From the NCBI GenBank assembly GCA_020364185.1, contig GCA_020364185.1_4846.1: 47,086 bases of DNA; one strand, 5' to 3'. Numbering within the stretch: position 1 is the stretch's first letter; each line of letters opens with the position of its first letter. The DNA is from a phage. Below the pieces are notes generated by a model. It did no database searches and was not told the origin of the DNA. It worked only from the letters and a program-made list of their open reading frames with translations. Shown here piece by piece: positions 1,979-35,603 of this stretch. A program made the translations under genes and the position numbers.

Positions 1979-3847
1979 ATGAAAGTACAGCTTAGAACAT
2001 ACCAACAAGAAGCTGTTGATTCTGTTATATGTCATATTCGTTCAAGCGTTTCATCGTGCATGATCATCTTGCCTACAGGGTCTGGGAAAAGCGTTGTTGT
2101 TGCATCAATCGCCGATTGGGTATTTAAAAATACTGGCAAGCGCGTTCTGTGCGTTGCCCCAACAAGCGAGTTAGTTGTACAAAACAGGCAGCGTTTTCTT
2201 TCTCTTACCGGCGAGCCAGCCAGCATGTTCAGTGCAAAGGCTGGCCCCAAAAACCTGCGTCACCCGGTAGTGTTTGGTTCACCAGTTACAATCAAGAACT
2301 CAATAGAGATGTTTGGTGATAAGTATGGTGCTGTCATTATTGATGAATGTGATGGAATAACGCCAACCATTAAATTCATTATTAATGAGATGAAGCGTCG
2401 CAATCCAAAACTGCGTGTTATTGGAATGACCGCTACGCCTTACCGCCTTGGAACTGGATACATCTACAAAGAGCATTACCTCGACGGTCCTACAGATGAA
2501 GAAACAGCCATAGACCCATATTACGACAAAGTCGTTTATGAGCTTGAAGCTAAATTTCTCATCGAAAACGGATACCTTACTCCGCCAGTAACAGAGCCTG
2601 TTTTTGACGAGTATGATACGTCTTGTCTTGAAAAGGATAAGTTGGGTCGGTACACGATAGCTTCAGTTGAAAAGGCGATGGTTGGAAAAGGAAGAAAAAC
2701 ATCACGTATTGTTGAAGATATTATCCGTCGCTCTGTTAATCGGCGAGGAACGATGATTTTTGCCAGCACCAAGAAACACGCTATGGAGATAATGGAGTCA
2801 CTTCCTCCCGGTTCTTATAGTTATGTTTTTGGTGATATGCCGACAACGGAACGCAATAAGGCAATATCAGACTTCAAGGCGCAAAAAGTTAAATACATCG
2901 TTAACCAAAATATCCTTACTGTAGGGGTTGATGTTCCTCATTGTGATCACATAGCAGTAATGAGAGCCACAGAATCACCAAGGCTCTATCAGCAAATAAT
3001 TGGCAGGGGGACGCGTCTTTATGAAGGAAAGGAAGATTTTCTTGTCAGCGATTACGCAGGCAACATTCAGCGCCACTTTTCTGCGACTGGGGACTTATTC
3101 ACTCCAGAAATAAAAGCAACAAGGAAAAAACCATCCGTGCCAATGGATGTCAAATGCCCTCTTTGTGGCTTTATTAATGAATTTGGCGTGCGCCCAAATC
3201 CTGAAAATCTTGAAGTTGACAATGAGGGGTACTGGCTTGATCTGGCTGGTGACAGGGTTATGATTGACATTTTTGATAAATCAGGTGAAAAAGTTGGAAG
3301 AAAGCCAATGCCAGCTCATTTTGGCAGGAGGTGTAAAAACTATGTTATGCAAGGACCATTAAGAGAAATGCACAGATGCACTTATAAATGGTCGGTAAAA
3401 GAATGTCCTGATTGTGGATTTGAAAATGATATAGCGGCAAGAAACTGCACATCATGCGGATCTGAAATCATTGACCCAAACCAAAAGCTAAAAGAAGAAG
3501 CTGACAGGCTTGATTCTTCTCCTTATGCAACCAAGCAATCAAGTGTAACCATGATGAATATCATGAAGCATTACGTTTCAAGCGGAGAAGACTTGGTGCA
3601 CGTGAAATTTGCTATTGAGCACAAGCCATTTTTTGTTAGCAAGTTCTACAATCCAAACTCTGAGAAGGAATGGATGAGGAAGGAGTGGGAAGAGTTTTGC
3701 AGTAAGTGCTTTGATGAATCTGACATGTCAATTGATGATGCAATAGCAAAAAGAGATGAGGCTGTCGCGCCATCAGTGATTATGTTCAGAAGAGATAAGG
3801 GTAGTAAATATTTCAACGTTAAAGGCATGTATTGGGGGGTATTATGA
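1979..3847 (+). CDS. SF2 DEAD/DEAH-box DNA helicase with C-terminal Zn-ribbon motifs
   Basis: 622-aa ORF; Walker A LPTGSGKS, DEAD-box-like IIDECD, SAT-like MTATP; two CxxC pairs (CPLCG, CPDCG / CTSCG) in C-terminal region. Confidence 0.8.
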   Translation: MKVQLRTYQQEAVDSVICHIRSSVSSCMIILPTGSGKSVVVASIADWVFKNTGKRVLCVAPTSELVVQNRQRFLSLTGEPASMFSAKAGPKNLRHPVVFGSPVTIKNSIEMFGDKYGAVIIDECDGITPTIKFIINEMKRRNPKLRVIGMTATPYRLGTGYIYKEHYLDGPTDEETAIDPYYDKVVYELEAKFLIENGYLTPPVTEPVFDEYDTSCLEKDKLGRYTIASVEKAMVGKGRKTSRIVEDIIRRSVNRRGTMIFASTKKHAMEIMESLPPGSYSYVFGDMPTTERNKAISDFKAQKVKYIVNQNILTVGVDVPHCDHIAVMRATESPRLYQQIIGRGTRLYEGKEDFLVSDYAGNIQRHFSATGDLFTPEIKATRKKPSVPMDVKCPLCGFINEFGVRPNPENLEVDNEGYWLDLAGDRVMIDIFDKSGEKVGRKPMPAHFGRRCKNYVMQGPLREMHRCTYKWSVKECPDCGFENDIAARNCTSCGSEIIDPNQKLKEEADRLDSSPYATKQSSVTMMNIMKHYVSSGEDLVHVKFAIEHKPFFVSKFYNPNSEKEWMRKEWEEFCSKCFDESDMSIDDAIAKRDEAVAPSVIMFRRDKGSKYFNVKGMYWGVL

Positions 3848-23299: not shown

Positions 23300-24370
23300 T
23301 TACTGCGGAGTTTGCGTACCGTAGCCGTTGAACACTTTGGACTTGCCAGTAAAATCCTTACGTACCTGGAGGCCAAAAGCAGACCATACCATAAAGTTAA
23401 AGTTATCGTGCGGATTGTCACGGGCTGCCGCGTAGGTGGAAACAGGCTGAGCAACACGCGGTCGGATGTACATGTCGTTGCGAACGTAGCCAACGAAATG
23501 GTTACCAGTCAGCAGGAAGTTGGTGCCAATCTTGCCGATGCGACCATTACCAAACTGCGTGATGTACTGCTCAACTGTGCCACCTTTGAAGCCTGCCGCA
23601 TCAGAATACGGACGCATGAAGCTGCGACGTACTGCCGGGGAAACCCACAGAGTCACCTGCTCAAATACGTTCTGCGCATCAAGAATAGCCTGGAAATCCT
23701 GATTGAAGAATGTCACGATTTCATCTGGCGTTGCAGTTTGCAGGTCGATATTCAGACCACCGGAAGCATTCAGGTTAACCTGAACAGTGTTTGGGTGGTT
23801 GGTGATACCGTAGCCAGTGTAAACGCCGTTCACGTTCAGAGTCTGGTCGCCAGTCAGCAGGTACTGAGCCATGTCGGAACGCAGGTTAAAGGTGACGTTA
23901 GCCTGATCGTCCAGCAGTGGGTCAAAACCTTCAGACTGCATACCCAGCAGTTCGCGCCATTCGCGGCTGTAGCCAGTTTTGAAGATTGGAATCACATCGC
24001 CAGTGTAATCGTAGCGAGTTTTATCCAAATCTTCCGGCTCCTGACCAGACAGAGTGCGGACGACCTTGCCAGCATCGGAAGCAATGCGGCTGATTGCCAC
24101 AGTCTTACCAATGTTGATGTTTGCCGCGATACCCATCAGGTCAGCCATCATGTCCTGACCAGCTTCGTTACGAAAAACTCGGGTGGTGACGTTGTCCACG
24201 TCGCGCCAGTAATCTTTCGTTACCAGAGCGGTGGCGTTAACGCCATAAGTTTTCGCCAGTTCAGCTTCTGCATTGCAGAACACCTTGCGGTCGATGGTGA
24301 GATGTTTCCACTGGTCAGCCACTACTGCGGAGTTAGCTACCAGGTCTTTGGTAAAAATAATCTTTTCCAT
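23300..24370 (-). CDS. major capsid protein (putative)
   Basis: 356-aa ORF following scaffold-like and decoration-like genes and followed by a stem-loop; assignment by size and position only. Confidence 0.55.
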   Translation of the reverse strand: MEKIIFTKDLVANSAVVADQWKHLTIDRKVFCNAEAELAKTYGVNATALVTKDYWRDVDNVTTRVFRNEAGQDMMADLMGIAANINIGKTVAISRIASDAGKVVRTLSGQEPEDLDKTRYDYTGDVIPIFKTGYSREWRELLGMQSEGFDPLLDDQANVTFNLRSDMAQYLLTGDQTLNVNGVYTGYGITNHPNTVQVNLNASGGLNIDLQTATPDEIVTFFNQDFQAILDAQNVFEQVTLWVSPAVRRSFMRPYSDAAGFKGGTVEQYITQFGNGRIGKIGTNFLLTGNHFVGYVRNDMYIRPRVAQPVSTYAAARDNPHDNFNFMVWSAFGLQVRKDFTGKSKVFNGYGTQTPQ

Positions 24371-24372
24371 TA

Positions 24373-26126
<1,754 letters not shown>

Positions 26127-29524: not shown

Positions 29525-30016
29525 ATGAGTAATTGGGAATATCTGAAGGGTTGCGAGAAGGATTTTGATGGTCATAAAACGGCTTCCGTCGTAGTTAAGT
29601 CAGGACTCACAGGTATAATTTACTACCTGAGTCACTATTACGTAGGGAAAGTCAGCACCATCGAAGGTGCAGGAGATATCGTAATTGCTATTCGCATACC
29701 GGTGAGTGACGAACAAGACCTCAACGATTGCATTGGCGCGCCGGAAGCTGATGCAACAGAGCAACTCATCACCGAACGCGGCAACCGTTACGGCAAATTC
29801 AAAGACGGCGCCGCAATCATGCAGGAACTGAAATTTGTCATGCGCGAAGTTGACGGCTGGCACAACCTGACGCCAAGTCAGCGGGAAGCGCTCGACATGA
29901 TTCAGCACAAGATTGGTCGCATCCTGAATGGCGACCCGGCTTATGATGATAGCTGGAAGGATATTGCTGGCTATGCGACGTTAATTGTTAATGAACTGAA
30001 TGGAGAGATTAAATAA
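29525..30016 (+). CDS. hypothetical protein
   Basis: 163 aa from ATG 29525 (GGAG RBS). Confidence 0.45.
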   Translation: MSNWEYLKGCEKDFDGHKTASVVVKSGLTGIIYYLSHYYVGKVSTIEGAGDIVIAIRIPVSDEQDLNDCIGAPEADATEQLITERGNRYGKFKDGAAIMQELKFVMREVDGWHNLTPSQREALDMIQHKIGRILNGDPAYDDSWKDIAGYATLIVNELNGEIK

Positions 30017-30324
30017 TGGCATTCTGCGACATCACAATCGCGCAACGAAACGCGAACTATACCAACATTGCTGACACATCAGCGCAACTGGTATCACTGA
30101 ACAGCGACGGTAGCGCAGTGCTGAAAATTGGCACCGAAACAGCACAGTTCATCGTGCAGAATCTGTCGCAGGCGAACGCGAAACAGGTGCTGATTAGCAC
30201 GGGCAGCGTTCTGTTTCTGGCTGGTAATTACAATGCGCCGAACCTTGAGTGTTCACTGGTGCGCATCGTTGAAACTGCGGTCGAGGAATCTGTTGATGAG
30301 TCAGCGACCTTGCCAGCAGAGTGA
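30016..30324 (+). CDS. hypothetical protein
   Basis: 102-aa ORF whose start codon overlaps the upstream stop (TAATG). Confidence 0.4.
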   Translation: MAFCDITIAQRNANYTNIADTSAQLVSLNSDGSAVLKIGTETAQFIVQNLSQANAKQVLISTGSVLFLAGNYNAPNLECSLVRIVETAVEESVDESATLPAE

Positions 30325-30451
30325 GCCACCAAAACCATCGGCATGGTGTGAGCAAATGGAGCGCAATGCGAAAGATGGTGATGAGGCGTATACTTATTTT
30401 CAGCTGAAACAGATGTGGAAGCAGAGAGAAAACTCAGAGCAAGCCAATTAA
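30296..30451 (+). CDS. hypothetical protein (51 aa)
   Basis: ATG 30296 preceded by GAGGA; overlaps upstream ORF end; followed by terminator. Confidence 0.3.
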   Translation: MSQRPCQQSEPPKPSAWCEQMERNAKDGDEAYTYFQLKQMWKQRENSEQAN

Positions 30452-30454
30452 AAA

Positions 30455-30482
30455 CAAGCCCCATTACGGGGCTTTTTTATTG
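30455..30482. terminator. bidirectional intrinsic terminator
   Basis: AAGCCCC-attac-GGGGCTT followed by TTTTTAT. Confidence 0.65.
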
Positions 30483-30955
30483 CGTAATGAGTTGTACTGC
30501 GCCTCACACATCAATCCCGCCTCCCTTGCCCTGTCAGCGTAATCTGCCAGCTGTCGATTTCTTTCGACAGATTTGCTGAGCACGTCTCCAAGCAAAACCC
30601 CGGTTTCTGCGGCTGGATTGCCAATGGACTCAGCGGCGGAATATCCGACGAGCTGCTTGCGGATGTTTGCGAGTTGTTGCTGCAACCTGCCAGACTTAGC
30701 AGCAGCGTTAACAGCATCATTACGCGCAGCATCAACCCTTTGCTGGGCGTCGGCCTGAATCTTCTGTAGTTCCGCATTGCGTCGTTGCTCCTCTTTCTCG
30801 TTGGCAGCCTTTTGTTCGGCTACAGCCGTTGCGTACCCGTCGTTATATCTCCGCTCGCCATAGCTGGATACCTTGTTGACAACCCACAACGCGCAGATAG
30901 CGACAATTATAATAATTGCCAGCGGTCGCCAGTATTTAATGAGAGTTGCCATCAT
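30464..30955 (-). CDS. i-spanin (Rz-like)
   Basis: 163 aa; N-terminal TM helix (WRPLAIIIIVAICALWVV) then charged coiled-coil periplasmic domain; contains embedded Rz1-like ORF. Confidence 0.6.
   Translation of the reverse strand: MMATLIKYWRPLAIIIIVAICALWVVNKVSSYGERRYNDGYATAVAEQKAANEKEEQRRNAELQKIQADAQQRVDAARNDAVNAAAKSGRLQQQLANIRKQLVGYSAAESIGNPAAETGVLLGDVLSKSVERNRQLADYADRAREAGLMCEAQYNSLRNKKAP
30511..30732 (-). CDS. o-spanin (Rz1-like lipoprotein) embedded in alternate frame of Rz-like gene
   Basis: signal MLRVMMLLTLLLSLAGC with lipobox L-A-G-C, Pro-rich mature part; entirely within 30464-30955 in another frame. Confidence 0.5.
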   Translation of the reverse strand: MLRVMMLLTLLLSLAGCSNNSQTSASSSSDIPPLSPLAIQPQKPGFCLETCSANLSKEIDSWQITLTGQGRRD

Positions 30956-31175
30956 CGCGCAGCCTCCGGTTTTCTTTGCGCATCACGTTCATCTTGCCGA
31001 GGATGCCAACCAGCATGATGGAGTAGCTCACGCCTTTAACCACGATTGGCGGTAGCGCCGCTTTCAGGTCGTCAGGCATCATTACCCACACATGCATCAT
31101 TGCATCTGGCCATAGCTGCAACAGCGAGCAGAATGAAATCCACGCACCGAGCAGCCAGTTGCTTAGCTTTTTCAT
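30936..31175 (-). CDS. putative class II holin
   Basis: 79 aa with two hydrophobic helices and charged C-terminus; ATGA overlap with endolysin stop. Confidence 0.45.
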   Translation of the reverse strand: MKKLSNWLLGAWISFCSLLQLWPDAMMHVWVMMPDDLKAALPPIVVKGVSYSIMLVGILGKMNVMRKENRRLRDDGNSH

Positions 31176-31636
31176 GCCACAGCCCCGCCAGCCTCTTTGT
31201 ATACCTGAATCAGCTTATCCAGCTTCTGCTCGTGCTGACCATAACCAGCACCCGGCAATGAAGCCCAGCGGGAGCGGCATTTATGGATGGCATCAGCAAT
31301 GCGCCCAGCCTCAATATCTGCGGTTGCTTTGCATTCACGGATTAGCTGCATTGCAATAGCGTCCTGCGATGCGGGGGAGAAGTCAGGCAGGCGCAGTTGC
31401 TTTTTGTACGCATCGTAAAACTTAGCCAGCACCTGATAGCGTCCGGCGGCAGTGGATTTGATACCCAGCTTAGGCAGGCTGACCAGCTTTCGCGGGTGGT
31501 CGGAATAATCAGTAAACAGCGAGCCACCAACAATCACATCGTAGCCATGATTATTGGTCTTCTGCCTGCCATTGTCCGTACCCTCACTGTACGCCAGCAT
31601 ATCCAGAAACGCTTTCATGTTTTTGCTAATAGCCAT
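31172..31636 (-). CDS. endolysin, lambda R-like lytic transglycosylase
   Basis: from ATG 31636 (AAGAGG RBS): KAFLDMLAYSEGTDNGRQKTNNHGYDVIVGGSLFTDYSDHPRKLV...AGRYQ...WASLPGAGYGQHE closely matches lambda R as recalled. Confidence 0.8.
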   Translation of the reverse strand: MAISKNMKAFLDMLAYSEGTDNGRQKTNNHGYDVIVGGSLFTDYSDHPRKLVSLPKLGIKSTAAGRYQVLAKFYDAYKKQLRLPDFSPASQDAIAMQLIRECKATADIEAGRIADAIHKCRSRWASLPGAGYGQHEQKLDKLIQVYKEAGGAVA

Positions 31637-31904
31637 ACCAGTAAACCTCTTTTTCAGCTTTGCGTTTTGCTTTATCGCCAGTCTTCTCTCCCCACACGAT
31701 GAAATGCGCAACAGCACATGAGAAGCAGCGAAGGTTATGTTTCTTCAGAAGTGTTGATTTACGGAACACGTCAATGCCAATGTCGGTGGCAAGACTTGTC
31801 AGTGCATCAAACTGATTCTGTGTTGTCTCGGTAGTGATGTAAGGCGATATATCTACGGCATCGGTGACGCCAAGCGTCTCAGAGCCGCGTTGCGATAGTT
31901 TCAT
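31626..31904 (-). CDS. hypothetical protein upstream of endolysin
   Basis: 92-aa ORF, not convincingly hydrophobic; first gene after promoter region. Confidence 0.4.
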   Translation of the reverse strand: MKLSQRGSETLGVTDAVDISPYITTETTQNQFDALTSLATDIGIDVFRKSTLLKKHNLRCFSCAVAHFIVWGEKTGDKAKRKAEKEVYWYGY

Positions 31905-31932
31905 ACTGCCTCCTGTTCAAACAATAATTAAT

Positions 31933-31988
31933 TCTATCACAATGGCTATTGACGTAGATTGAGTGGTGGTGCATAGTATCTACATCAA
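31933..31988. promoter_or_regulatory. divergent promoter region (plus TTGACGTAGATT; minus TGATGTAGATA and extended -10 TGATAGAAT)
   Basis: TTGACGTAGATT 31949-31960; ATCTACATCA 31978-31987; ATTCTATCA 31931-31939. Confidence 0.45.
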
Positions 31989-32009
31989 ATGATGAGTGAG
32001 GTGATAAAA

Positions 32010-32171
32010 ATGAATCCGCGTGACGTTACTTTTTGCAGTGAGTCAAATCCGAAGGCTGCGAAGGTTGCCAACAGAAAGGCAAAGGTGAAGCAATTGATGG
32101 ACGCCGGTCACACCAAGAAAGCAGCTCAACGCATGGTCAAAGAAATGAAATGGATGAGTGCAAAATGGTAA
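32010..32171 (+). CDS. hypothetical basic protein
   Basis: ATG 32010 preceded by GAGGTGATAAAA leader identical to that at 19852-19866. Confidence 0.35.
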   Translation: MNPRDVTFCSESNPKAAKVANRKAKVKQLMDAGHTKKAAQRMVKEMKWMSAKW

Positions 32172-32308
32172 TGGTCAAATTCAAAGAAAACGGACGCTGC
32201 TCAGTGTTAAGCCTTGAGCAAATCAAAATCCGTCCGTGCGGTAAAGTGGTTGCGCCATTTGGTCTGGTGCAGATGCGTGAAGTTGAGATTATTGAATATA
32301 TTAAGTGA
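32171..32308 (+). CDS. hypothetical protein (45 aa)
   Basis: hand-translated ORF coupled by TAATG overlap. Confidence 0.3.
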   Translation: MVKFKENGRCSVLSLEQIKIRPCGKVVAPFGLVQMREVEIIEYIK

Positions 32309-32316
32309 GGTTGGTG

Positions 32317-32607
32317 ATGGAAGAATTTAAAGGTACGCCGGGTCCGTGGTTTTTTGATGAGGCATTTAATGTTTATGAAGGTGACAGGGATGGACACATT
32401 TGCACTGTCACGTCATGGCTTGATGAGCCAACTGCGGATGCTAATGGCTTCTTGCTTGCGGCATCTCCTGACCTGTTATCCTCGCTCCAGCAGCTTCTGG
32501 AAATCTACGACGACCACTCCGGCAAAGTCTGGACAACATCAAGCAAGCGCCGCGCTCTGGATAATGCGCGTGCGGCGGTTAATAAGGCATTGGGAGAAAC
32601 AAAATGA
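32317..32607 (+). CDS. hypothetical protein
   Basis: ATG 32317 after GAGG RBS; ATGA overlap with next gene. Confidence 0.4.
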   Translation: MEEFKGTPGPWFFDEAFNVYEGDRDGHICTVTSWLDEPTADANGFLLAASPDLLSSLQQLLEIYDDHSGKVWTTSSKRRALDNARAAVNKALGETK

Positions 32608-33176
32608 AACTTATCGACCTGTTAGTTCAAGAATTACCTAAGCGTGGCGGGTGGCCTGATGGTGCAATTTATATCTGCACAGAAAAAGATGGCACTCCAC
32701 GCATTGTTGGTTCTGGTTGGCACGATAATAAATCATTATCATCATTTAAAGTTAATGATGACAAAAGCATAATTGACTTCGATCAATACGAGTCTGCGCT
32801 CGCCGCATCGCAAAAGCAGACATGGAACGGCGAAGGCCTGCCTCCGGTTGGGTGTGAGTGTGAATATCTCGACAACAACGGCAAGTGGTATCCGGTAACA
32901 ATTAAATACGCGTCAAACCAACTGGTTGTTATTTCTGGAATAACTAAAATCCTCGGCGTAGAGCAGGGCACGGAAATAGCAAAAGATATCATCATCGACA
33001 AACCGCAGTTCCGCCCACTACGCACAGAATCAGAGAGGAGGCATGAGGCTGTACTTGAATCTATCTGCGCGGTATTAGAGATGGCAGATCAGGATTACAA
33101 GCGCAGAGATGAGGCCAAACTCATTTATGAAGCCATCGCGGCAGGCAAGATTCCCGGCGTGAAACTGGATGATTAA
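32604..33176 (+). CDS. hypothetical protein
   Basis: 190-aa ORF, last gene of plus cassette before terminator. Confidence 0.45.
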   Translation: MKLIDLLVQELPKRGGWPDGAIYICTEKDGTPRIVGSGWHDNKSLSSFKVNDDKSIIDFDQYESALAASQKQTWNGEGLPPVGCECEYLDNNGKWYPVTIKYASNQLVVISGITKILGVEQGTEIAKDIIIDKPQFRPLRTESERRHEAVLESICAVLEMADQDYKRRDEAKLIYEAIAAGKIPGVKLDD

Positions 33177-33253
33177 AACAATATTCAGCATCCTAGAGAT
33201 ATTGTGCTATGCGATAATAATATTTGTTCTGTGTATGCTGATAAGATAAAACC

Positions 33254-33282
33254 AAGCCCTCACTTCGAGGGCTTTTTGTTTA
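33254..33282. terminator. intrinsic terminator
   Basis: AGCCCTC-acttc-GAGGGCT followed by TTTTTGTTT. Confidence 0.6.
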
Positions 33283-34210
33283 CCGATTGCCATGCTTCAC
33301 GCTGCTTATCAAGTCTTTCCTGCGACGACTCAAGAATGACTGGTCTACCATCCATTAATAACGCAGGAGTTTGTGCGCAATGACAATTATATCTGTTGCC
33401 ATTCTCGCTATAGAACGTGTCAATCTCTTCTGGCGTATAAAACCGTCCGTGTCGCGCCGCGTGCGTCTGGCGGGTTGTGCGCATCAATGCTGACTGCCAC
33501 AGCATCACCGTCTCAATACCTAATTCCTCGCGTGCCTCAATGACTTCCCGCCTGTTAGCCTGCCGCAGTGTTCCGGTGATTTCAGTCTGCGCCAGCTGCT
33601 TAGCGTAGCTGTGAGACACATCGACACGCTTAACGATATCAGCTTCAACATCACGAGGATTAGCGCCACGGGCAATACCTTCCATAATGACAGATGCCAG
33701 TTGCTGGCGGGAATAGTCGCTCAATCCGCGCCAGTCGGAATAGCCAGCGGCATAGGCCAGCTGGAGTCGATTCAGGTAAGGCTCACTGTAGAGTATCGCG
33801 GCAATCGGCCTCTGCTCAGCATAAACCGGAGACAGGCTTGACAGTTCTGAGTTAGCCTTCTGTGTTCCGGCCTGATACGCATCACCGATGAACACATTAG
33901 CCCACATCCTGCCGTGACCGAAATCATCACCTTCCAGCAGAATCTCGTCAATCAGCGCCTGCAACTCATCCATGAAAGTAGCAGCCCGCGCGCTACTGAA
34001 ATCGTAGAAATACAATCCGCTCGATTCCGCGTTAGCCTGACTATGCGGAATGGTGCGGAACGACTCAAGCGCACGAGCCCTGAGTTGTTTGTATTTGCGC
34101 GTTATCACTTTGTCCATCTTTGACAGTCTGGTTGCAGCGCCCAGCGGGTCGGTCAGACTCTGCGATATGCGCGGTTGAGGTAGCCTTGCGTTAAACCGGA
34201 GTATCTTCAT
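33260..34210 (-). CDS. minor head (head morphogenesis) protein, Mu F / SPP1 gp7-like
   Basis: start moved to ATG 34210 (track N-terminal extension overlaps portal by 250 nt); C-terminal half matches the conserved region recalled for Mu F-like proteins (...AQTEITGT...[12 protein letters not shown]...NCHC...). Confidence 0.6.
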
Positions 34211-35603
34211 TTTCGTCTTCCGGCGGTGTGTCTTCGCGGTAGCTTTCGTCAAGTTCAATCGGCTCCATACCAACCATGCCGCGAGCCTCATCGACGCTAA
34301 GTAGCGCAGATTGACCAGCATCAAAGAATGACTTGTTCGCAGTGGCGAGTTTAGCCAGCAATTCAGCCTTATCCAGTTCAGATGGTGCCAGCAAGTCATC
34401 CCACTTAACCTTGTAGCCATTTTCCGGCGCTTTATCGACAATGCCGAACTGAATCATGCGTTCAACGAACATTGAAATAACATAGTCAACCCATGTTTCG
34501 CGGCGCTGCTTGGCGGTCATTGCCTCCTGCATCTTGTCTTCGTCGCTCGCAAGGCGTCCGGTTTGCTGACCAAAAATGACGGTGAAAGGAAGTGCCATTG
34601 ATGCAGCGAACTGGTTGGCGGCCACTTCCCATGTTGGTTTTGGGTCTGCCGGGGTTACAGCCAGAACCTTCGCATCGGCCCCCATCGTGAACATAGCGGC
34701 ATCAATCCCTGAGTTGAGAGCCTCAATGTTCTCATTCATGATGTCGGTGAGTTCTTCAATGTCGACACCCATCGACTGCGCAAGGCTTGCTGGCGTTACG
34801 TTATCCTTCGTGTAGTTAACCGCCAGCTGGCGACTGGCATTTTTCAGGAAGCCCTCCGCAGAGCTACCGGAAACCTTCGCCATGTCGATAAGGCTGTTGT
34901 AGCCAGCACGTAGCATCGGGATGCCACTGAACATGCTTCCATCAAAGCTACCCTCAGCCAGAATGATGATGCGGTCTGGATGAATCTGCACGGAACGCTC
35001 AGGCTTGCCGTCGCTGTCGAAGTCTTCCACGGCGCTCTCCTGATATTCGTACATCTCAGGCATTCCGTAGTCTTCGCTGGTTTCGTTGTTATTCCACGCA
35101 CTGACTTTGAGCTGCTCCTCCCATACCGGAATAAAGCGGACGATGGATTTATCTTTAATGCGGCGGGTTTTGGTGATATCTACCGGCTCACTCCACTTGC
35201 GACCATCCCGGATTTGCAGGATAACGGCGGAATAGCGGTTGATAGCATTGCGCTTATCGGCTTCCTTGATGAACGGGTAGGCGCGCTTCATCATGTTGTT
35301 GATGGACAACTCCCACGTCGTTGAGTTCTTGTCATCCTCGCCATCTTCGACCACTTCGGGGTATTTCTGCCAACATTTATTAATAATGCGGTTAATGCCA
35401 GCTGCGGCTGCTGGGTGCCGTTCGTAGGCATAGCGGAACATCTCAGCGGTGATTTCCTGCGGGTATCCGCATTCCTGCCACAACCTGTCATGTTTCTGGT
35501 CAAGATTCTTCCCTCCAGCGCAAAGCCGTTGTTGCTGAAGTGCCCGGTTATTGTTCGCCACGCGGTCGCGTATGTAGGCGTTTAGTGCATCAATTTTTGA
35601 CAT
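34191..35603 (-). CDS. portal protein (putative)
   Basis: 470-aa ORF between large terminase side and Mu F-like gene; acidic C-terminus; assignment by size and synteny. Confidence 0.55.

Follow-up and report, generated by a model that had tools for sequence, protein, structure and literature searches.

The lysis genes considered here have their closest described counterparts in siphophages related to Salmonella phage Skate. For Skate itself, published work describes a class II holin, an endolysin of the transglycosylase type and a pair of embedded spanins (PMC6606912); for swi2 it describes a holin, two lysins (lysin1 and lysin2) and Rz/Rz1 (PMC8185280). The same five genes are also annotated in Sa179lw and RSU-F4K5. 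We analyzed a 47,086-nucleotide stretch of phage DNA (GenBank assembly GCA_020364185.1, contig GCA_020364185.1_4846.1; hereafter ‘the window’), in which five tightly packed open reading frames (ORFs) on the minus strand, at positions 30464–31904, are arranged in the order g92, R, holin, Rz and Rz1, the last of these embedded within Rz. Gene content, order and overlaps are the same as in Skate (NC_054639, gp15–gp19), swi2, Sa179lw, seszw and KFS-SE2. DNA identity to this group is 88–90%, with 88–99% identity for g92 and 95–99% for R. The window is nevertheless a distinct genome, and it does not have the insert of 142–187 basepairs that some relatives carry between holin and Rz.

Because this architecture is already annotated in Skate, swi2 and Sa179lw, the cassette is not new; it is the lysis set of a Skate-like (‘Skatevirinae’) Salmonella/Escherichia coli siphophage, and would follow the canonical three-step route. 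What we add concerns its first gene. The 92-residue product of g92 (31626–31904, minus strand) has been treated as an active lysozyme in published work on the Skate group, whereas we find that its catalytic lobe is absent; the gene annotated as ‘endolysin/lysozyme’ is, in our reading, a conserved half-lysozyme left by endolysin displacement.

g92 corresponds to one lobe of a GH24 lysozyme

The g92 protein matched the Pfam family PF00959 (Phage_lysozyme) at 4e-10, over profile positions 55–114 of 125 only, and PHROG 10457, a family of ∼95-residue ‘endolysins’, at 2e-42. Lysozymes in the PDB matched it at 1e-9 or weaker, through C-lobe residues only. When aligned with P22 gp19 and full-length relatives, g92 proves to retain the initial seven residues (MKLSQRG) and to have lost, relative to the full-length proteins, 46, 4 and 5 amino acids. 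The 46-residue deletion takes out the Glu-x8-Asp/Cys-x5-Thr catalytic region together with the beta-hairpin lobe. A tblastn search of the whole window with two full-length relatives found no separately encoded N-lobe that would point to a split gene (best E > 1). Without the catalytic N-lobe, g92 cannot act as an ordinary muramidase. The GenBank record of Skate cites an ‘Ex5Dx8T’ motif in this protein, which we rejected as a catalytic signature: its spacing is the reverse of that of the GH24 motif, and its residues vary among orthologues (D15 is replaced by N or E and T24 by S or K, and E9 shifts position).

An AlphaFold2 model based on a 30-sequence alignment, which replaced a first prediction from eight sequences (predicted local distance difference test score, pLDDT, of 68), showed a compact all-alpha domain with a pLDDT of 96.2 and a predicted template modeling (pTM) score of 0.89. 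An independent model, that of the KFS-SE2 orthologue in BFVD, has nearly the same fold (TM score of 0.99). Between 88 and 90 of the 92 residues superpose on helix A and the C-lobe of enzymes of 146–160 residues; the beta-hairpin lobe is missing, and the two-lobe fold of GH24 lysozymes, with its intervening substrate cleft, does not occur in the model. In T4 lysozyme, helix A and residues 75–164 constitute a discontinuous subdomain that folds by itself (bioRxiv 10.1101/353649), and the model suggests that g92 retains exactly this autonomously folding ‘C-terminal subdomain’ (helix A plus C-lobe).

The initial annotation of this DNA, made from the letters alone, had regarded the first gene as not an obvious holin and perhaps a lysis regulator. 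The gene proves classifiable, as a GH24 homologue without the catalytic lobe; it may have a regulatory or accessory role.

Residues 56–63 of g92 (KHNLRCFSC, at approximately 31716–31739) include His56, Cys60 and Cys63, the latter two forming a CxxC, that are invariant in all short forms and also in the full-length lysozymes of Roufvirus-like phages; they are absent from P22 gp19, the sole generic GH24 protein compared. One possibility is that these residues bind metal or have a redox function peculiar to this lineage of lysozymes.

Relatives carry a complete GH24 gene or a remnant beside the same holin

At the position of g92, the Roufvirus-like IMG/VR contig L046 and Klebsiella phage VLCpiS13d encode a full-length GH24 protein of 144–145 residues, and neither has R. 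The neighboring genes are the same, and the GH24 gene is followed by a homologous holin with 28–60% identity to that of the window. The C-lobe of the Roufvirus-like GH24 protein is 51% identical to g92 and has in common with it a lineage-specific KHNxxCxxCA motif. Across 77 IMG/VR loci with a homologue of this holin, the C-lobe alone was accompanied by R in 36 and both lobes were present without R in 35; mixed cases did not occur. A metagenomic phage (L058) has a third arrangement, in which a 98-residue remnant (P0050) is followed by an endolysin with GH108 and PG_binding_3 domains and then by the holin; further relatives of this GH108-linked remnant were found neither in IMG/VR nor among cultured phages.

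All of the short forms, down to 37–58% identity, have the same three insertions or deletions. They also have derived residues in common: an [FY]-N pair is replaced by T/A followed by D/S/A, a G by D, and a new Y[WY]YGY stands at the C-terminus. The recurrence of the same indels and derived residues in every short form indicates a single origin. We suggest that g92 represents the remains of the original GH24 endolysin of this phage group: an internal deletion of ∼46 codons would have removed the catalytic N-lobe from the gene, and another enzyme would have taken over (R in the window, a GH108 protein in one relative).

Up to five enzyme types occupy the endolysin position beside this holin family (L127–L129, L131, L136–L137 and L058), namely GH24, the lambda-R type, GH108 with PG_binding_3, a PF11860 N-acetylmuramidase, and a CHAP-like protein encoded downstream that scores below the family cutoff. 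The variety of enzymes found beside one holin family marks the endolysin slot as a hotspot of non-orthologous displacement. Spanins next to this holin family switch as well, between DUF2514, lambda-Rz (PF03245) and a third type.

Short GH24 proteins were surveyed by scanning 1.84 billion representatives, which returned many matches of 89–110 residues. Only two of these (P0049 and P0050) fall in the g92 family. Most of the inspected matches were C-terminal fragments, with [FY]-N but without helix A, that probably represent incomplete ORFs; we rejected them as a sign that short GH24 proteins have evolved recurrently. Two unrelated metagenomic proteins, P0064 (L057, 120–425; 101 residues) and P0171 (L060, 4001–4333; 110 residues), do look like GH24 lysozymes that keep helix A and have a shortened N-lobe. 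P0064 carries SLTADIGID as in g92, and the genomic contexts of both are uninformative. Loss of the N-lobe may have occurred more than once.

g92 is intact and under purifying selection

We estimated the ratio of nonsynonymous to synonymous differences per site (pN/pS) by the Nei–Gojobori method over 34 closely related loci. The value for g92 was 0.138 (95% interval from a codon bootstrap, 0.078–0.212); those of R, holin and Rz were 0.047, 0.183 and 0.340. Synonymous divergence is alike in all four genes (pS 0.29 for g92 against 0.32–0.39 for its neighbors). Constraint within g92 is concentrated in the core of the C-lobe (residues 28–72, pN/pS 0.083, compared with 0.30 for the N-terminal 27 residues). 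The reading frame was intact, at 92–93 residues, in 41 of 41 loci, and tblastn located the short form in ∼140 records of cultured phages. A further comparison used derivative genomes, ∼70 in all, deposited from a genome-reduction study of the Skatevirus seszw (PMC9825161). The cassette was 100% identical to wild type in at least 52 of them. In no fewer than eight others it departs from wild type by roughly one base; in the three of these inspected, the change is a single substitution in Rz or holin. g92 is intact in the 36.6-kb minimal genome.

This pattern of selection favors a selected protein function over a frame that is simply kept open for coupling to R. Since the gene is intact and under purifying selection, we infer a non-catalytic accessory role in lysis, and consider it probable that g92 is a catalytically inactive remnant retained for that role. 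We are far less confident about any particular partner. The protein may bind or modulate, whether released or in concert with R and the holin; possible modes include binding of murein precursors or the sacculus, of the holin, or of another envelope component. We propose only tentatively, and with somewhat more doubt than conviction, that g92 is a new kind of non-enzymatic pseudo-enzyme of lysis cassettes that derives from a displaced GH24 endolysin, is kept throughout the subfamily and modulates lysis.

Observations that weigh against an accessory role, and alternative explanations

Several observations speak against the retention of g92 for an accessory role in lysis, and some of them bear on alternative explanations. 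Six loci with this holin have no GH24 remnant; the replacements include a PF11860 muramidase or a GH108 protein encoded ahead of the holin, or a protein encoded after it whose weak CHAP match falls below the Pfam cutoff. The existence of relatives with PF11860 or GH108 and the same holin family, and no remnant, indicates that the holin does not require the remnant, and the idea that it needs a GH24 C-lobe is weakened to that extent. The replacement of the [FY]-N pair in every short form concerns residues that contact substrate, and its loss makes a simple retention of murein binding by g92 doubtful.

Frame disruptions of g92 also occur. A viable seszw clone (100L, MZ375313) has a frameshifted g92, from which it follows that the gene is not strictly essential, and two metagenomic variants (P0029 and P0033) have compensated frameshifts in its C-terminal third. 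Clone 100L, a ‘large-plaque’ derivative, has two cassette mutations (MZ375313.1, L053, positions 1501–2186, equivalent to 31904–31172 of the window): a deletion of one nucleotide in codon 57 joins g92 residues 1–56 to the R frame, and a deletion of 46 nucleotides in R drops approximately codons 44–59 and makes a stop. Both ‘endolysins’ of this reportedly viable phage thus appear to be broken. The deposited sequence could be the consensus of a mixed population, or the phage could have another lytic activity.

Such variants would be expected if g92 were a functionless relic whose frame stays open only through translational coupling, or polarity, to the start of R in its 3' end. The arrangement of the two genes fits this as well, the R start codon and an AGAGG lying inside the last 25 nucleotides of g92, with an overlap of 11 nucleotides. 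Coupling would, however, keep the frame and not the amino acids, yet pN/pS is 0.14 (0.08 in the core) at a pS of 0.29 against 0.32–0.39; moreover, the short form is conserved beside two different downstream endolysins with different junctions, and its fold is predicted with very high confidence. We therefore regard a functionless relic as unlikely and continue to favor an accessory role in lysis. A related arrangement, a g92–R fusion made by programmed frameshifting, was also considered: R is read in the +1 frame with respect to g92, and no slippery site was noticed, although no dedicated search was made.

Alleles of g92 that are 53–58% identical to that of the window are paired with R proteins that are 95–97% identical to the window's, which disfavors a tight, co-evolving g92–R complex. 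More generally, g92 comprises two deeply diverged allele groups, with 53–58% amino acid identity between the window and L003–L006 and L042–L044; in L003–L005 the diverged g92 stands beside the 95–97% identical R, which implies that the two were joined by recombination at their boundary or close to it.

This independent assortment of g92 alleles relative to R and holin alleles, and the derived surface changes in all short forms (FN lost, D in place of G, and the new C-terminal Y[WY]YGY tail), could also be accounted for if g92 had been recruited outside lysis, for binding of host or competitor proteins, superinfection exclusion or counter-defense, its place in the cassette being historical. Against this, g92 invariably opens the lysis transcript and is found nowhere else in these genomes, and no evidence of a defense or anti-defense role turned up (none was searched for). 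Recruitment outside lysis is in our view quite unlikely, and a role within lysis is the reading that we retain.

The remaining observation is that the swi2 orthologue (‘lysin2’), expressed as a trigger-factor fusion, kills with an effect of about 1 log both inside and outside cells (PMC8185280), which would contradict a catalytically dead g92 if the killing were enzymatic. We consider this weak evidence, as it comes with no enzymology and the effect could be non-enzymatic. That g92 is a second active muramidase, in a phage with two working endolysins, as its GenBank label (‘endolysin_glycosidase, has Ex5Dx8T motif’) and the name lysin2 imply, is very unlikely: the matches to PF00959 and to the ‘endolysin’ family PHROG 10457, the motif cited for Skate and the lowering of Escherichia coli titers by ∼1 log by the trigger-factor fusion (PMC8185280) speak for it, but the entire N-lobe with its E-x8-D/C-x5-T residues is missing, the cited motif has reversed spacing and is not conserved among orthologues, the [FY]-N cleft residues are gone, and the swi2 assays used 52-kDa fusions that had an equal effect with and without EDTA (ethylenediaminetetraacetic acid).

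The endolysin, holin and spanin genes

R (31172–31636, minus strand) encodes 154 residues when counted from the ATG at 31636; the ORF found mechanically reaches further, to a GTG at 31717. The protein is a lambda R-type (GH104) lytic transglycosylase. Over residues 3–153 it aligns with two structures of lambda lysozyme, 1AM7 and 3D3D (E = 3e-62, 69% identity over 149 aligned residues), and it matches PHROG 90 at 2e-57. Its catalytic glutamate (Glu18) is kept in an SEGT motif, AYSEGTDNG aligning with AWSEGTDNG of lambda R, in which Glu19 is the catalytic residue. The resemblance to lambda R that had been suggested for this gene is thereby borne out. No stretch of 17 residues exceeds a Kyte–Doolittle hydropathy of 0.49, the maximum reached; the N-terminus, which has neither a signal sequence nor a signal-anchor-release sequence, can be aligned with the start of lambda R. 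Given the lack of a hydrophobic N-terminus, R should be a soluble, holin-dependent lytic transglycosylase, and we take it to be the murein-degrading, working endolysin of the cassette.

The holin gene (30936–31175, minus strand, 79 residues) overlaps R through an ATGA at 31172–31175, as the initial annotation had noted, and belongs to PHROG 13249 (‘holin’, 4e-50) and to the Pfam family DUF7940. The two helices attributed to its product are unequally marked: residues 44–60 are strongly hydrophobic (Kyte–Doolittle 1.87), and a segment at approximately residues 7–23 reaches only ∼1.28 in a hand calculation. For orthologues, which have been described as class II holins, TMHMM reportedly found two transmembrane domains (PMC8185280, PMC6606912). 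The C-terminus is charged and hydrophilic (RKENRRLRDDGNSH). The swi2 holin had no activity as a trigger-factor fusion (PMC8185280), a result that is uninformative for a membrane protein. The placement of the endolysin before the holin was rejected as a local oddity, the same order being ancestral across the whole phage group.

About one third of relatives carry an insert of 142–187 basepairs between holin and Rz with an ORF of 53–70 residues (L004, 4950–5120; L012; L016; L024; L027, approximately 3450–3640), which has no counterpart at 30936–30955 of the window. The inserts differ in sequence among phages, and each closes with a duplicated holin 3' end (...RLRNDVDSR*), which suggests that small genes have been inserted repeatedly at the holin/Rz junction.

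Rz (30464–30955, minus strand, 163 residues) overlaps the holin gene by 20 nucleotides and matches DUF2514 (1e-31) and PHROG 312 (‘Rz-like spanin’, 6e-52); an N-terminal transmembrane segment spans residues 11–27 (Kyte–Doolittle 2.62). Rz1 (30511–30777, minus strand, 88 residues) lies entirely inside it in the +1 frame, with the two start codons 178 nucleotides apart and a GAGGAG 10 nucleotides upstream of the Rz1 ATG. Its product matches PHROG 11621 (‘Rz-like spanin’, 5e-35) and begins with a signal sequence ending in LLLSLAGC, with the lipobox LAGC and its cysteine at residue 32. In each of the 36 distinct relatives examined, the Rz1 frame is uninterrupted and carries a lipobox of the form L[AV]GC. 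The earlier identification of an Rz1-like lipoprotein frame embedded in Rz therefore holds, and the two genes are predicted to encode a two-component embedded spanin pair of the Rz/Rz1 type, with Rz as the inner-membrane subunit (i-spanin) and Rz1 as an outer-membrane prolipoprotein (o-spanin).

By homology, lysis would proceed as follows: the holin would build up in the inner membrane and then open holes, R would pass through these as a soluble transglycosylase and cut the murein, and the Rz/Rz1 pair would then disrupt the outer membrane.

Predicted transcription signals at the ends of the cassette

The spacer of 85 basepairs between g92 and a divergent gene (31989–32171), at 31905–31988, is conserved far above its flanks in an alignment of 39 relatives. 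Within it, an extended −10 element, TGTGATAGAAT (31931–31941, minus strand; TG at 31939–31938 and TAGAAT at 31936–31931), is nearly invariant in these relatives, even where the surrounding sequence has diverged, and is a putative promoter of the cassette. A scan with the sigma-70 consensus found no minus-strand site in 31930–31990, and its total count was that expected by chance, with no excess over shuffled sequences; it missed TGTGATAGAAT because a good −35 element is absent. A promoter for the cassette in this interval, as initially annotated, is thus plausible from conservation of TGTGATAGAAT, and its function is putative.

The same scan matched a divergent promoter-like site on the plus strand (TTGACG, a 17-nucleotide spacer and CATAGT; 31949–31977) that faces the plus-strand genes at 31989–33176 and stands back-to-back with the cassette promoter. 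Its −35 element coincides with a conserved block, CTACGTCAA, in the alignment of relatives. The spacer appears to hold back-to-back promoters, TGTGATAGAAT on the minus strand and TTGACG-17-CATAGT on the plus strand. A Shine–Dalgarno-like AGGAGG (31909–31914, minus strand), conserved in relatives, lies upstream of the g92 start.

At the other end, a hairpin with T-runs on both strands, AAGCCCCGTAATGGGGCTT (30456–30474), forms a predicted bidirectional intrinsic terminator that overlaps the Rz stop codon and is shared with convergent plus-strand genes. The GenBank record of Skate annotates a terminator at the equivalent position, in agreement with the terminator assigned to the cassette at the outset. 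It is a reasonable supposition that promoter and terminator both belong to the cassette itself; a single transcript would begin at the conserved extended −10 element and stop at the hairpin.

Genomic setting

The window is the genome of a Skate-like siphophage, with ∼90% identity over ∼65% of 25 kb to swi2, ECO111 5-P, C1 and Sf11. The cassette lies inside the head region, as was first noted. To one side of it is a Mu-F-like head morphogenesis gene (33260–34210), with those for portal and terminase further out, and to the other are the genes for capsid, decoration and DUF2213 proteins (23300–26126). Small genes of mixed orientation share the interval with the cassette, occupying ∼4.3 kb and ∼1.3 kb (∼5.6 kb in total). 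Skate and Sa179lw have been annotated with this arrangement as well. All of the ORF coordinates given in the initial annotation were correct; its observation is confirmed, and its interpretation is partly supported.

Between the terminator and a plus-strand gene of 102 residues (30016–30324), two ORFs of 72–78 residues overlap on opposite strands (30228–30464, minus; 30233–30451, plus). This spot is annotated inconsistently, as a minus-strand ORF in Sa179lw and as a plus-strand gene of 51 residues in Skate. In Salmonella phage LPST10 (KY860935/NC_054645; match region 32107–34351), an HNH homing endonuclease is annotated inside the stretch that matches the lysis cassette, and HNH genes adjoin the cassette in further relatives (L003, L058 and seszw).

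Implications and comparison with known systems

Proteins of the g92 type are labeled as active lysozymes or endolysins in ∼140 GenBank phage records and in at least one experimental paper. As g92 does not have the catalytic lobe, its development as an enzybiotic is probably misdirected. The phage group shows non-orthologous endolysin displacement ‘in the act’, with full GH24 genes, a remnant with a lambda-R enzyme, a remnant with GH108 and clean replacements all represented. A catalytically decapitated enzyme that is under purifying selection is also a testable candidate for a new accessory function in lysis. If the pseudo-enzyme reading is true, g92 would be a natural case of a subdomain that survives alone after its catalytic partner lobe was deleted.

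The description of the cassette as lambda-like, with which the initial annotation began, applies to part of it. As in the S-R-Rz/Rz1 cassette of lambda, a holin and a soluble endolysin are combined with an embedded two-component spanin, and R is a true homologue. The order differs, however, being holin–endolysin–spanin in lambda and endolysin–holin–spanin in the window; the holin belongs to DUF7940 and not to the lambda S family, and has no dual-start motif; the i-spanin belongs to DUF2514 and not to the lambda Rz family PF03245; and the window has an extra half-lysozyme gene upstream. The Roufvirus-like phages (VLCpiS13d, DP01 and L046) resemble the window in the syntenic position of the cassette, downstream of the portal and Mu-F genes, and in a homologous holin, and differ from it in a lysozyme with an intact N-lobe and catalytic residues, in the absence of R and in another spanin type.

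Two systems outside phage lysis cassettes offer further points of comparison. The T4 lysozyme subdomain known from studies of protein folding has in g92 a counterpart from nature; the T4 fragments (residues 1–12 plus 75–164) are laboratory constructs of marginal stability, whereas g92 is a conserved natural gene. In SpmX of Caulobacter and Asticcacaulis, a GH24 domain has been reused as a localization module, with both lobes kept and within a larger membrane protein, whereas g92 is a free half-domain of 10 kDa encoded in a phage lysis operon.

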